The notes below the pieces were generated by a model, which did not search any database, was not told the DNA's origin, and was given only the letters and a program-made list of their open reading frames with translations. This document shows positions 32,601 through 39,709 of a stretch of DNA of 39,709 nt, one piece after another (position 1 is the first letter of the stretch; each line of letters starts with the position of its first letter). The stretch lies in sequence record PQ010280.1. The stretch is one strand, 5' to 3'. Both the position numbers and the translations under genes were made by a program. The stretch is from Escherichia phage vB_EcoM_CQ615.

Positions 32601-33566
32601 GATGCGGCACGTCAAGGTATGCTAGGGGACGTTATTAGTGCCACCCTAACAGGTAAGACTACCCGCTGGGAGAAAGAAGGATTCCTTCGTGGCGCCTCCG
32701 TAACTCCTGAGCAGATGGCTGGCATCAAGTCTCTCATCAAGGAACATATGGTACGTGGTGAGGACGGGAAGTTTACCGTCAAGGACAAGCAAGCGTTCTC
32801 TATGGACCCACGGGCTATGGACTTATGGCGACTTGCTGACAAGGTAGCTGATGAGGCAATGCTGCGTCCACACAAGGTGTCCTTACAGGATTCCCATGCG
32901 TTCGGAGCATTAGGTAAAATGGTTATGCAGTTTAAGTCTTTCACTATCAAGTCACTTAACTCTAAGTTCCTGCTAACCTTCTACGATGGGTACAAGAACA
33001 ACCGAGCGATTGACGCTGCGTTGACTGGTATCATCTCTATGGGTCTCGCTGGGGGTTACTACGCTATGGCTGCACACGTCAAAGCATATGGGATGCCTAA
33101 GGAAAAACGTAGGGAGTACTTGGAGAGAGCACTGGACCCAACCATGATTGCCCACGCTTCGTTGTCTCGTAGTTCTCAATTGGGTGCTCCTTTGGCTATG
33201 GCTGACCTAGTTGGCGGTGTTTTAGGGTTCGAGTCCTCCAAGATGGCTCGCTCTACGATTCTACCTAAGGACACCATGAAGGAACGTGACCCAAACAAAC
33301 CGTACACCTCTAGAGAGGTAATGGGCGCTATGGGTTCAAACCTTCTGGAACAGATGCCTTCTGCTGGCTTTGTGGCTAACGTAGGGGCTACCTTAATGAA
33401 TGCTGCTGGCGTGGTAAACTCGCCTAACAAAGCAACTGAGCAGGACTTCATGACTGGCTTGATGAACTCTACCAAGGAGTTAGTACCTAACGACCCTCTT
33501 ACTCAACAGCTTGTGATTAAGATTTATGAGGCCAATGGTGTTAACTTGAGGGAACGTAGGAAATAA
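29610..33566 (+). CDS. 16: Internal core protein D with N-terminal lytic transglycosylase domain (gp16)
   Basis: 1318 aa; N-terminal SLT-like motif (VAWTESRFVPTAKSKTGPLGMMQFTKATAKALG). Confidence 0.96.
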   Translation: MDKYDKNVPSDYDGLFQKAADANGVSYDLLRKVAWTESRFVPTAKSKTGPLGMMQFTKATAKALGLRVTDGPDDDRLNPELAINAAAKHLAGLVGKFDGDELKAALAYNQGEGRLGNPQLEAYSKGDFASISEEGRNYMRSLLDVAKSPMAGQLETFGGITPKGKGIPAEVGLDGIGHKQKVTQELPESTSFDVKGIEQEAPAKPFAKDFWETHGETLDEYNSRSTFFGFKNAAEAELSNSVAGMAFRAGRLDNGFDVFKDTITPTRWNSHIWTPEELEKIRTEVKNPAYINVVTGGSPENLDDLIKLANENFENDSLAAEAGLGAKLSAGIIGAGVDPLSYVPMVGVTGKGFKLINKALVVGAESAALNVASEGLRTSVAGGDADYAGAALGGFVFGAGMSAISDAVAAGLKRSKPEAEFDNEFIGPMMRMEARETARNANSADLSRMNTENMKFEGEHNGVPYEDLSTEKGAVVLHDGSVLSASNPINPKTLKEFSEVDPEKAARGIQLAGFTEIGLKTLGSDNADIRRVAIDLVRSPTGMQSGASGKFGATASDIHERLHGTDQRTYNDLYKAMSDAMKDPEFSTGGAKMSREETRYTIYRRAALAIERPELQKVLTPSERIVMDIIKRHFDTKRELMENPAIFGNTKAVSIFPESRHKGTYVPHVYDRHAKALMIQRYGAEGLQEGIARSWMNSYVSRPEVKARVDEMLKEVHGVKEVTPEMVEKYAMDKAYGISHSDQFTNSSIIEENIEGLVGIENNSFLEARNLFDSDLSITMPDGQQFSVNDLRDFDMFRIMPAYDRRINGDIAIMGSTGKTTKELKDEILALKAKAEGDGKKTGEVHALMDTVKILTGRARRNQDTVWETSLRSINDLGFFAKNAYMGAQNLTEIAGMIATGNVRALGHGIPILRDTLYKSKPVSAKELKELHASLFGKEVDQLIRPKRADIVQRLREATDTGPAVANIVGTLKYSTQELAARSPWTKMLNGTTNYLLDAARQGMLGDVISATLTGKTTRWEKEGFLRGASVTPEQMAGIKSLIKEHMVRGEDGKFTVKDKQAFSMDPRAMDLWRLADKVADEAMLRPHKVSLQDSHAFGALGKMVMQFKSFTIKSLNSKFLLTFYDGYKNNRAIDAALTGIISMGLAGGYYAMAAHVKAYGMPKEKRREYLERALDPTMIAHASLSRSSQLGAPLAMADLVGGVLGFESSKMARSTILPKDTMKERDPNKPYTSREVMGAMGSNLLEQMPSAGFVANVGATLMNAAGVVNSPNKATEQDFMTGLMNSTKELVPNDPLTQQLVIKIYEANGVNLRERRK

Positions 33567-33586
33567 TACGACTCACTATAGGGAGA
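33564..33586 (+). promoter_or_regulatory. Phage RNAP promoter phi17 (class III)
   Basis: taatacgactcactatagggaga overlapping the gene 16 stop. Confidence 0.85.
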
Positions 33587-33638: not shown

Positions 33639-35300
33639 ATGGCTAACGTAATTAAGACCGTTTTGACTTACCAGTTAGATGGCTCCACTCGTGATTTTAA
33701 TATCCCGTTTGAGTATCTAGCCCGTAAGTTCGTAGTGGTGACTCTTATTGGTGTAGACCGTAAGGTCCTCACGATTAATACAGACTATCGCTTTGCTACA
33801 CGTACTACCATCTCTCTGACCAAGGCTTGGGGTCCAGCCGATGGCTACACGACCATCGAGTTGCGTCGAGTAACCTCCACGACCGACCGATTGGTTGACT
33901 TTACGGACGGCTCAATCCTCCGTGCGTATGACCTTAACGTCGCTCAGATTCAAACGATGCACGTAGCGGAAGAGGCCCGTGACCTGACTGCTGATACCAT
34001 CGGTGTCAATAATGATGGTCACTTGGATGCCCGTGGTCGTCGAATTGTGAACCTTGCTAACGCCGTGGATGACCGTGATGCTGTTCCGCTGGGGCAACTC
34101 AAGACCATGAACCAGAACTCGTGGCAGGCGCGTAATGAGGCCCTACAGTTCCGTAATGAGGCTGAGACTTTCAGAAATCAAGCGGAGGGCTTTAAGAACG
34201 AGTCTAGCACTAACGCTACGAACACTAATCAGTGGCGTAATGAGGCTAAGGGGTTCCGTGATGAAGCAGAGCAGTTCAAGAATACGGCTGGTCAATATGC
34301 TACATCTGCTGGGAACTCTGCTACTGCCGCACATCAATCTGAGGTGAACGCTGCTAACTCCGCAACTGCTTCCGCTAACTCTGCTACTCTGGCAGAACAG
34401 CAAGCAGACCGCGCCGAGCGTGAGGCTGATAAACTTGGTAACTGGAATGGACTTGCTGGTGCTGTAGATAGTGTTCAGGGTGATAGTGTATTCTGGAAAG
34501 GAAGCGGCTATTGGGTCGGAGGTCCCGTATACCAACTACAAACGAACCACGCGTTTAGGTTCCGTATGGGTCTTTGGGAAGAAGGCGACTTCCTTAAGTC
34601 TGACTTCGCTATGGACAGACCGGACGGCATAGGGTTCATAGAGTATGCAGCGGACAAGACTGGGCAACATTGTCACCAGATTCGACTTAATCAGTTAACA
34701 ATAGCTGGCGGTGTGTTAGAGTCAGATGCTGATGATCGCATAGCTCACGCTTTCGCTGACCAGTACAACACTAAAGCTCCTTTCTTCCAACAGATTCGTG
34801 CACAATCTACAAGCTCATATCACCCAATAATAAAGCAACGAACTTACCAATCTGGACGGTGGGCAGGATGCTGGTCTATCGGTACATTGCTGACTGGAAC
34901 GAGTCCGTCATTCCACATACATATGAAAGACGAAGGGATAGATGGGAAACTTTGGACGTTCAATACCAATGGAGACTTCCGCGCCCCTGGGGAGATTTGG
35001 GCCGATGGTGGACGTGTGGTTGTACAGAATGGCTCTTTTAACCCTGCTGGTAGAGTGTGGGGTACTGCGTATGATTCCGGATACCTTGACGACTGGGTTC
35101 GAAGACATTTCATAGGGGATGTATACCTAGGTCCTCATGTGTGGCAACAACAAACTGGAGGTTATCAGGACATTATAGCACCATCTGGGCATGTGCAAAC
35201 AGGTACAACCGCTAGTAATGGAGCCGTTGCGGGTATCTTTGTAAGACCGGTATGGCTTGGTTTCCATAACGGCACAAAAAGAATCATTGCGTCGCAGTAA
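33639..35300 (+). CDS. 17: Tail fiber protein (gp17) with a non-T7 distal (receptor-binding) half
   Basis: 553 aa; N-terminal about 270 aa (MANVIKTVLTYQLDGSTRDFNIPFEYLARKFVVVTLIG...; repeat region FRNEAETFRNQAEGFKNE) match T7 gp17; from about residue 272 (nt 34455) the sequence diverges (GSGYWVGGPVYQLQ...GIFVRPVWLGFHNGTKRIIASQ). Confidence 0.93.
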   Translation: MANVIKTVLTYQLDGSTRDFNIPFEYLARKFVVVTLIGVDRKVLTINTDYRFATRTTISLTKAWGPADGYTTIELRRVTSTTDRLVDFTDGSILRAYDLNVAQIQTMHVAEEARDLTADTIGVNNDGHLDARGRRIVNLANAVDDRDAVPLGQLKTMNQNSWQARNEALQFRNEAETFRNQAEGFKNESSTNATNTNQWRNEAKGFRDEAEQFKNTAGQYATSAGNSATAAHQSEVNAANSATASANSATLAEQQADRAEREADKLGNWNGLAGAVDSVQGDSVFWKGSGYWVGGPVYQLQTNHAFRFRMGLWEEGDFLKSDFAMDRPDGIGFIEYAADKTGQHCHQIRLNQLTIAGGVLESDADDRIAHAFADQYNTKAPFFQQIRAQSTSSYHPIIKQRTYQSGRWAGCWSIGTLLTGTSPSFHIHMKDEGIDGKLWTFNTNGDFRAPGEIWADGGRVVVQNGSFNPAGRVWGTAYDSGYLDDWVRRHFIGDVYLGPHVWQQQTGGYQDIIAPSGHVQTGTTASNGAVAGIFVRPVWLGFHNGTKRIIASQ

Positions 35301-35309
35301 GGAGGAACA

Positions 35310-35687
35310 ATGCGAGTATTTACTAACTGGAAGTGGACCGAAGGGTCTTACTTTGGAAAACCCATCTATGAGATTCGCGACAACAGTAACGTTGATTGGT
35401 ACACCTTAATGGATGAACTAGATGAGCGCCAAGAAACATGGGTGGTAGGTATTGGGCCTAGAGGAGACGTTATGTGGTTCACTGATGGACCCGTGTCTGG
35501 ACTGTACGTGCCTGTAGATGGAGGGACCGTTGTAGTAACTGATTCTTTCGAGTTCTCTGACAACTGGCGAGGGTGTACATGGGACGGTAAGAAATTCCAC
35601 GCACCAGAAGAAGCCCAGAAGCGAACTAAGGAGGACATTGAGCAGGACTTACTGAAACTCATGGCTGAGTTGAAGGGTCTAGAATAA
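35310..35687 (+). CDS. Hypothetical 125-aa protein between tail fiber and holin; candidate fiber-associated factor
   Basis: ATG 35310 with strong SD (taaggagg) overlapping the gene 17 stop; MRVFTNWKWTEGSYFGKPIYEIRDNSNVDWY...DNWRGCTWDGKKFHAPEEAQKRTKEDIEQDLLKLMAELKGLE; no gene sits here in canonical T7. Confidence 0.65.
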   Translation: MRVFTNWKWTEGSYFGKPIYEIRDNSNVDWYTLMDELDERQETWVVGIGPRGDVMWFTDGPVSGLYVPVDGGTVVVTDSFEFSDNWRGCTWDGKKFHAPEEAQKRTKEDIEQDLLKLMAELKGLE

Positions 35688-35708
35688 TTATAACAAGGAA
35701 AGGCGTGT

Positions 35709-35724
35709 GGTCCACGGATGGACC
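35709..35724 (+). promoter_or_regulatory. Short hairpin upstream of the holin gene
   Basis: ggtcca-cgga-tggacc: perfect 6-bp inverted repeat in the 17.5 leader. Confidence 0.35.
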
Positions 35725-35743
35725 CTTTAAGGGAGGACGCTAC

Positions 35744-35947
35744 ATGCTGTCTTTAGATTTTAACAATGAGTTAGTCAAGGCTGCACCTATTGTTGGCACA
35801 GGTGTGGCTGATGGCGCTGCGAGGCTTTTCTTCGGGCTGAGTCTTAATGAGTGGTTCTATGTTGCCGCTATCGCCTATACAGTGGTTCAGATTGGTGCCA
35901 AGGTAGTCGATAAGATGATTGACTGGAAGAAAGCTAATAAGGAGTGA
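35744..35947 (+). CDS. 17.5: Class II holin (gp17.5)
   Basis: 67 aa from the internal ATG with SD aagggagg; MLSLDFNNELVKAAPIVGTGVADGAARLFFGLSLNEWFYVAAIAYTVVQIGAKVVDKMIDWKKANKE. Confidence 0.85.
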   Translation: MLSLDFNNELVKAAPIVGTGVADGAARLFFGLSLNEWFYVAAIAYTVVQIGAKVVDKMIDWKKANKE

Positions 35948-38569: not shown

Positions 38570-39013
38570 ATGATAAGCAAGAAGAAGTATGTTGTCGATA
38601 AGGAGACTGGTTGCTGGAACTTTAAGGGATGTAAGACTAAGACTGGTTATGGTCGTATTCGCGTGAATGGAGTCCATTGGATGGCCCACAGGTATTCCCT
38701 GAGTTGTCATCTAGGCAGACCGATAGCTGACGAAATGGTTGTGATGCACATGTGTGATAACCCCTCATGTGTTAACCCTGAGCACCTTAAGGAAGGGACT
38801 CAGAAGGAAAACATAGAGGACTGCATATCAAAAGGTCGCGCAACTAAGGCCACAGGTAAACGCGATGCGTCGAAGAGAGACCCTAGCGAGGAACGTAAGG
38901 CTATAGTTATTCGTAGATACCATAAAGGCTGGACCGCAACGTCCATAGCGAGATACCATAAGCTCTCTGTGGCGTGGGTCAAGAGGGTCATTGAGGATTA
39001 CCTAAGTGATTGA
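38570..39013 (+). CDS. HNH endonuclease with C-terminal helix-turn-helix, directly downstream of the terminase
   Basis: ATG 38570 with SD aaggagg; 147 aa; GCWNFKGCKTKTGYGRIRVNGVHWMAHRYS...MHMCDNPSCVNPEHLKEGTQKENIEDC (classic HNH), then basic linker and HTH-like RRYHKGWTATSIARYHKLSVAWVKRVI. Confidence 0.8.
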   Translation: MISKKKYVVDKETGCWNFKGCKTKTGYGRIRVNGVHWMAHRYSLSCHLGRPIADEMVVMHMCDNPSCVNPEHLKEGTQKENIEDCISKGRATKATGKRDASKRDPSEERKAIVIRRYHKGWTATSIARYHKLSVAWVKRVIEDYLSD

Positions 39014-39064: not shown

Positions 39065-39087
39065 TAATTCGACTCACTATAGGGAGA
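39065..39087 (+). promoter_or_regulatory. Phage RNAP promoter phiOR-like
   Basis: taattcgactcactatagggaga (one mismatch from consensus). Confidence 0.75.
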
Positions 39088-39582: not shown

Positions 39583-39709
39583 ACCTAAAGTTCCCCCATA
39601 GGGGTACCTAAAGCCCAGCCAATCACCTAAAGTCAACCTTCGGTTGACCTTGAGGGTTCCCTAGGGTTGGGATGACCCTTTGGTTTACCTTTGAGTGTCT
39701 CCTTGTCCC
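39583..39709. repeat. Right copy of the direct terminal repeat (runs to the window end)
   Basis: Identical to 1..127; upstream 39569-39582 (tctcacaatgtacgg) resembles the start of the T7 terminal repeat, so the true repeat is probably about 141 nt or more. Confidence 0.9.

Follow-up and report, generated by a model that had tools for sequence, protein, structure and literature searches.

Gene 17 of Escherichia phage vB_EcoM_CQ615 (PQ010280.1; CQ615 below) encodes a tail fibre that begins like that of T7 and ends differently, which raises the questions of where the T7-like part stops, what has taken the place of the rest, and what the replacement may do for the phage. The window analysed, 39,709 bp long, is a complete linear genome, since it carries a perfect direct terminal repeat of 127 bp (1-127 and 39583-39709; that of T7, at 160 bp, is longer). 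It is T7-like (Teseptimavirus), follows the T7 gene order and contains 11 T7-type promoters. Nucleotide identity to Escherichia phages C5 and N30 is ~93-94% over the first 25 kb, which makes CQ615 a distinct phage; the exact sequences of gp17 and of the open reading frame (ORF) downstream of it have no identical entry in a collection of 15 billion proteins, and it is therefore a distinct isolate.

Boundaries of the replaced segment

An initial annotation had read gene 17 as a chimera of a T7-like proximal part and an unrelated distal half. Comparison with T7 bears this out, with 93% identity over residues 1-289 and loss of similarity beyond. The features that define the segment are as follows.

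33639..35300, + strand: gene 17, chimeric tail fibre protein of 553 aa (ORF, Pfam and PHROG evidence)
33639..34503, + strand: T7-orthologous proximal part, aa 1-289, with tail-attachment domain, coiled coil and hinge (93% aa and 92% nt identity)
35688..35743, + strand: right junction, conserved 17/17.5 intergenic sequence, where the T7 alignment resumes at AA..ACAAGGAAAGGCGTGTGGTCCACGGATGGAC, directly behind the TAA stop of the downstream ORF
35744..35947, + strand: gene 17.5, class II holin, in the flank outside the cassette (PF10746, E 2e-35)

The kept proximal part is unambiguous. Residues 1-162 match the tail-attachment domain Phage_T7_tail (PF03906, E 1e-73), the protein matches PHROG 4242 'tail fiber protein' (E 1e-164), and BLASTP of gp17 (33639-35297) against T7 gp17 (NC_001604) gives 269/289 identities (93%) over residues 1-289. 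Identity to T7 is 97-100% for aa 1-150 and 87-97% for aa 151-270, and a T7-like coiled coil and hinge are present at about aa 150-280; in T7 gp17 the proximal coiled coil spans ~160-250 and the hinge ~250-280 (PMC13485008). The T7 repeat region FRNEAETFRNQAEGFKNE, which the initial annotation had pointed out, is there and identical to T7.

Base-by-base alignment places the left breakpoint at residue 289/290 (nt 34503/34504), directly after the V-F-W-K-G codons, and beyond residue 289 BLASTP against T7 gp17 returns nothing significant (next best E 0.2). The breakpoint had previously been put at about residue 272 (nt 34455), 17 residues too early, as residues 272-289 are still T7-like; its description as the end of the coiled shaft was roughly right, the junction sitting just distal to the fibre hinge, and the whole distal half-fibre has been exchanged. 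On the DNA level, similarity to T7 holds at 92% until 34503 and resumes at 35690 at 87% (blastn). The replaced cassette (34504-35689) thus measures 1186 bp where T7 has 804 bp, and comprises the distal 264 residues of gp17 together with a 125-aa downstream ORF (35310-35687). It does not end with gene 17 at 35300, as had been assumed, but runs through this ORF, and the suggestion that the swap pairs with an extra downstream ORF proved correct. The right flank is set by the T7 alignment, in which gene 17.5 starts at the ATG at 35744 (67 aa, MLSLDFNNE as in T7 gp17.5); a longer, GTG-started holin ORF of 80 aa (35705-35947) was rejected because the same alignment puts the real start at that ATG.

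Composition and relatives of the distal fibre

Within gp17 the cassette divides into two parts, joined inside a conserved linker.

34504..35078, + strand: sub-module M1, aa 290-480, shaft or knob region of the distal fibre, unlike T7 (from identities)
35049..35111, + strand: linker motif GRVWGTAYDSGYLDDWVRRHF, aa 471-491, conserved wherever a fibre gene is followed by a relative of the downstream ORF
35079-35096, + strand: internal recombination joint GYLDDW, aa 481-486 (from codon-level alignment)
35097..35297, + strand: sub-module M2a, aa 487-553, small domain at the C-terminal tip, presumed to bind the receptor (from identities)

The linker qualifies the earlier description of the distal half as entirely different from the T7 tip. 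The T7-like distal half (pyramid and tip, T7 aa 371-553) is indeed absent, and pairwise alignment shows the distal half not to be collinear with T7 gp17, with the exception of this ~38-residue motif, the sole similarity beyond aa 289: residues 471-508 align with T7 443-480 at a z of 5.2, better than all 2000 shuffles, and also give a weak HMM match. The T7 distal half (PDB 4A0T) occupies the same fibre position, follows the same proximal part and likewise has the linker before its terminal domain.

M1 is 85-92% identical at the amino acid level to its counterparts in N30, AV103, C5, 04922B and Bas104, and only 32-40% to those in Pila, Koku and D226. More distant relatives lie in other kinds of phage fibre. 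Both the N-terminal part of T-even gp37 and segments of gp34 match residues 332-475 at ~34% identity, and a lambda-like side tail fibre of a Limnobaculum prophage (P0001) matches residues 369-519 at 35%. The last 225 aa of a Pragia fontium prophage fibre run collinear with residues 337-538; the gene for that fibre is flanked by a Baseplate_J gene on one side and by a gene for a classical Caudo_TAP tail fibre assembly (Tfa) protein on the other. More generally, the C-terminal ~200 residues of Mu/P2-like prophage fibres (Pragia fontium, Enterobacter sp.) and of the lambda-like Limnobaculum Stf (P0001) are collinear with CQ615 at 28-36% identity. A YHP(I/L)IKQ segment, a G-x-V-x-G-x-x-W linker and a small tip recur in all of them, with a Tfa gene behind the fibre gene. 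They differ from CQ615 in two respects: the prophage N-termini are of the baseplate-collar type (PF12571) and not T7 tail adaptors, and the prophage Tfa proteins are classical Caudo_TAP proteins, which the CQ615 ORF is not.

The tip, M2a, is 82-94% identical to those of N30, AV103 and Serratia phage Pila, and ~52-54% to those of C5, 04922B and Bas104. Against the C-terminus of Mu S it reaches a Smith-Waterman score of 71 (z 8.1), a value attained by 0/2000 shuffles, and the alignment has the motifs APSGHV-TG and (I/V)RPV common to both. This likeness rests on a targeted pairwise test, because a tip-only profile matched no PDB sequence, and it is limited to the CQ615/Pila type of tip, those of the C5 type giving no signal.

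Database searches with the distal half returned little. As a single sequence it drew only noise (antibody chains) from PDB, and as a profile only T7 gp17, weakly; in a word-indexed protein search P0001 was the sole relative, and a 6-sequence alignment as query found none. These nearly empty word-indexed searches meant that no deep alignment was available for structure prediction, and an AlphaFold2 monomer of aa 272-553, built with one usable homologue, reached a pLDDT of 29 and gave no usable fold.

The downstream ORF encodes a predicted short Mu-like tail fibre assembly protein

Three features concern the second gene of the cassette and its expression.

33564..33586, + strand: class III promoter phi17, driving gene 17 and the genes downstream (exact match to TAATACGACTCACTATAGGGAGA)
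35301..35307, + strand: Shine-Dalgarno sequence AGGAGGA of the downstream ORF, which overlaps the stop region of gene 17 (read as ...GCAGTAAGGAGGAACAATG...)
35310..35687, + strand: sub-module M2b, a short Mu-like Tfa protein of 125 aa that T7 lacks

The ORF starts 9 nt past the gene 17 stop, as the very next gene after that of the fibre, and a strong Shine-Dalgarno sequence, AAGGAGG, stands before it. The T7 annotation has phi17 at the same relative place. We found no T7-type promoter between phi17 and 39065, so that the ORF would be co-transcribed with gene 17 from phi17. T7 lacks a separate chaperone gene between 17 and 17.5, where CQ615 has this predicted one.

Several comparisons identify the protein. 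Its match to PHROG 136 'tail fiber assembly protein' is weak (E 3e-5), and an HMM of 30 members of its family matches Mu Tfa (PDB 5YVQ chain B) by sequence at E 8e-4. An AlphaFold2 model based on 11 homologues has a pLDDT of 89, and its N-terminal alpha/beta domain has the Mu Tfa fold (structural alignment to 5YVQ chain B, 13% identity). A Foldseek search with the ORF against viral models returned annotated Tfa proteins, and hhalign of the ORF family against the annotated Tfa of Bas103 gives a probability of 95%. The family is small: 1.84 billion representatives, searched exhaustively with HMMER, yielded only 29 clusters (50% identity), whose members are almost all 113-143 aa long and end in a strikingly conserved C-terminal helix, R-TKEDI-x-DL-x-KL-x-EL.

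What the family lacks is equally consistent. No Pfam or NCBIfam family covers the 125-aa ORF or its 29 clusters. Caudo_TAP (PF02413) has no match to the ORF at E <= 0.1 and matches 0/30 family members at E <= 1, under conditions in which Mu U (E 7e-37) and two prophage Tfa proteins (E 3e-32 and 3e-18) were recovered as positive controls. BLASTP of the ORF against Mu U and the prophage Tfa proteins shows no similarity, and a bacterial genome scan with ORF patterns found no relatives. Two large proteins, P0028 (5792 aa) and P0036 (1066 aa), match the core of the ORF profile (23-74) 11 and 6 times; we discarded both as probably spurious, repeat-driven hits, P0036 being a secreted protein made of Ig_7 repeats and a Por secretion tail.

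Because its N-terminal domain is of the Mu Tfa type by fold and profile and Caudo_TAP is not matched, we describe the ORF as a short Mu-like Tfa, possessing the N-terminal domain of classical Tfa proteins without their C-terminal domain. The closest structural reference is the Mu S/U pair (PDB 5YVQ), in which Mu U has 175 aa including a Caudo_TAP C-terminal domain, compared with 125 aa and no such domain in CQ615. Mu is a myovirus, and its S and U genes lie on an invertible segment. With one C-terminal helix in the ORF and a longer helical domain in classical Tfa proteins, the mechanism of action may differ.

Distribution and mosaicism of the cassette

That T7-like phages have mosaic gp17 genes is textbook knowledge, and this cassette is itself already present in GenBank. 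The Teseptimaviruses N30 (NC_048078) and AV103 (OR352934) share the gene 17 architecture of CQ615, down to identical junctions; their cassettes are 95.5% and 91% identical to that of CQ615 in nucleotide sequence, the distal parts of gp17 93% and 89%, and the ORFs 97% and 89%. Other phages hold only one part of it. The tip-proximal part alone occurs in C5, 04922B, JB01, UFV01 and Bas104, and the tip-distal part with the ORF alone in Serratia phage Pila. M2, that is, the tip and the ORF together, is 82-97% identical in N30, AV103 and Pila, and 46-54% in C5, 04922B and Bas104. The two kinds of partial match meet at GYLDDW: 04922B is near-identical to CQ615 until about 35096 and divergent beyond, and Pila is divergent before about 35075 and similar beyond.

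Across ten phages, pairwise identities of the tip and of the Tfa correlate at r 0.94 (Mantel p 2e-4), compared with r 0.39 for M1 and the Tfa. Tip and Tfa move as one unit, and the co-variation is in part simple physical linkage. The arrangement of a fibre gene followed by a short Tfa is found in Teseptimavirus, Teetrevirus (Klebsiella phage Koku) and Berlinvirus (D226, P694), and in 12/12 IMG/VR loci the gene next to a long fibre ORF, on its downstream side, is a relative of the ORF, all 12 of those fibres carrying a G-x-(I/V)-x-G-x-x-W...L-x-x-(W/F) linker and then a tip of ~65-70 residues. The T4-like Erwinia phage Cronus shows the same order, its homologue coming after the distal long-tail-fibre gene, and this conserved context speaks for a pairing of fibre and ORF. 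In most related GenBank records, including N30 and AV103, the ORF is annotated as a 'hypothetical protein'.

Teseptimaviruses with a fibre and a separate Tfa have also been described before. Among the phages of the BASEL collection, Bas103 (EmilieLinder) has a separate Mu-like Tfa after the fibre gene, and Bas102-104 require restored O16 O-antigen (PMC11990801). In Bas103 and Bas104 (AnnaIndermaur), as in CQ615, the distal part of gp17 is replaced and a Tfa gene follows it. Bas104 is 85% identical in M1 and 77% over the distal half, but its tip and Tfa are of the other type (~54% and 47%), and its coiled-coil shaft (596 aa) is not that of CQ615. In Bas103 the Tfa is of full length (175 aa) and homologous to the CQ615 ORF at the profile level, and the fibre end differs. 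Literature searches on N30, C5, AV103 and Bas104 turned up no receptor data for these fibres beyond the O16 dependence of Bas102-104.

The proximal part of the gene is patchy as well, over 33800-34460 (gp17 aa about 55-270). 04922B is 98-100% identical to CQ615 over 34100-34520, N30, AV103 and C5 are only 70-80% identical in bins 34220-34279 and 34340-34459, and the coiled coil of Bas104 is wholly different. These identities suggest additional recombination within the gp17 shaft.

Relative to the initial annotation, the probable Mu-type character of the distal half, the Tfa-like predicted chaperone encoded by the ORF and the two-part mosaic structure of the cassette are new. Relative to what was already known, our addition is modest: the exact junctions, the two-part structure with its conserved joint, and the recognition of a 'hypothetical' ORF as a member of a short Tfa subfamily without Caudo_TAP.

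A probable recombinant host-range cassette and its alternatives

We consider gene 17 of CQ615 to be a natural recombinant, in which aa 1-289 of the T7 type were kept and a Mu/P2-type fibre end was acquired together with a short Tfa as a 1.19-kb host-range cassette (probability roughly 0.8). Our data show directly where the breakpoints lie, that the segment is mosaic, which fold and homologues the ORF has, that the distal half is collinear with prophage fibres, that tip and Tfa are linked, and which expression signals are present; for chaperone activity, stoichiometry, retention on the virion and the identity of the receptor we infer from Mu S/U as a model. On that model, gene 17 and the ORF would be transcribed from phi17, the ORF being translated from its strong ribosome binding site just past the gene 17 stop. 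Its N-terminal alpha/beta domain would dock on the small C-terminal tip (aa 487-553), the conserved helix R-TKEDI-x-DL-x-KL-x-EL could bring three copies together, and this three-copy assembly would nucleate a fibre trimer that folds from its distal end, after which the short Tfa may remain attached to the finished fibre, like that of Mu. The tip would then bind a glycan on the cell surface, in the LPS core or the O-antigen, other than the target of T7, and the earlier prediction of a receptor other than that of T7 is plausible. The one experimental clue is indirect, namely the need of Bas104 for O16 O-antigen (PMC11990801), in a phage that has M1 in common with CQ615 and a tip of the other type. 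The cassette appears to be exchanged among Studiervirinae at V-x-W-K-G (aa 285-289), at GYLDDW (aa 481-486) and in the 17/17.5 intergenic sequence, and these three conserved joints would allow M1 and M2 (tip and chaperone) to reassort independently.

A broader form of this proposal, to which we would give somewhat less than even odds, is that a mini-Tfa subfamily (the Mu Tfa N-terminal domain, with the Caudo_TAP domain replaced by one helix) constitutes with the ~65-residue tip a minimal, self-contained receptor-binding unit, which podoviruses of several genera and T4-like myoviruses reassort at GYLDDW and which perhaps stays on the virion as part of the adhesin.

The alternative that survives best, though we think it unlikely, is that the small ORF is mainly an adhesin resembling gp38 of the T2/S16 type, which would cap the tip and contact the receptor, so that the ORF and not gp17 would set the host range. 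In the T4-like Erwinia phage Cronus the homologue of the ORF does occupy the gp38 position, after the distal long-tail-fibre gene, and two ORF types (about 46% identical) accompany the two tip types. Tfa proteins are, moreover, modular in design, and that of Mu is reported to stay on the mature fibre and to contribute to receptor recognition (PMC9608196).

It is far less probable that the distal half is a diverged but collinear T7 orthologue, the product of ordinary rapid evolution with no module replaced. Both gp17 proteins are 553 aa long and the linker aligns with its T7 counterpart; we regard the equal length as coincidence, and the abrupt junctions refute the reading, since identity falls from ~90% to undetectable within a few codons in protein and DNA alike, and the junction recurs, equally sharp, in several isolates obtained independently. 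Nor would divergence account for a segment of 1186 bp in place of 804 bp, with a whole extra gene, or for a distal half that resembles segments of prophage, Mu and T-even fibres instead.

We give practically no credence to an assembly artefact or a contig chimeric between two phages, for which the one precedent is the evidently mixed assembly of the ST2 record with its ORF relative, given that the CQ615 genome is complete, with its 127-bp terminal repeat and T7 gene order, that the reading frame is unbroken across the junction, and that N30, AV103, C5, 04922B, JB01, UFV01 and Bas104, from different laboratories and countries, have the same junctions. That record (Escherichia phage ST2, OM982647.1, L004 in our set, a 'partial genome' of 171 kb) had appeared to be a second large-phage host of the ORF and was discounted as probably a mixed assembly: it is labelled Kagunavirus, yet a T7-like class II holin, small terminase and primase/helicase adjoin its ORF homologue.

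Implications for fibre exchange

The recombinant cassette is the likely host-range determinant of CQ615 and is therefore the part to exchange or engineer when a T7 chassis is to be retargeted. Three natural splice points present themselves: after V-F-W-K-G (aa 289), inside GYLDDW (aa 481-486) and in the 17/17.5 intergenic sequence. In gp17 swaps the terminal tip must go with its small predicted chaperone gene; such swaps often fail when the chaperone is left behind. Our analysis assigns a predicted function to an ORF recorded as a 'hypothetical protein' and introduces no new kind of biology.

Two further features lie near the right end of the genome. Just after the gene for the terminase large subunit is an ORF of 147 aa (38570-39013, + strand) that resembles an HNH homing endonuclease (PF13392 HNH_3, E 6e-8) and has a C-terminal helix-turn-helix (HTH_23, E 3e-6). 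T7 is not known to have an HNH gene at the corresponding position, and the ORF looks like a mobile insertion. It is followed at 39065-39087 by a T7-type promoter with one mismatch (TAATTCGACTCACTATAGGGAGA), which we take to correspond by position to T7 phiOR.
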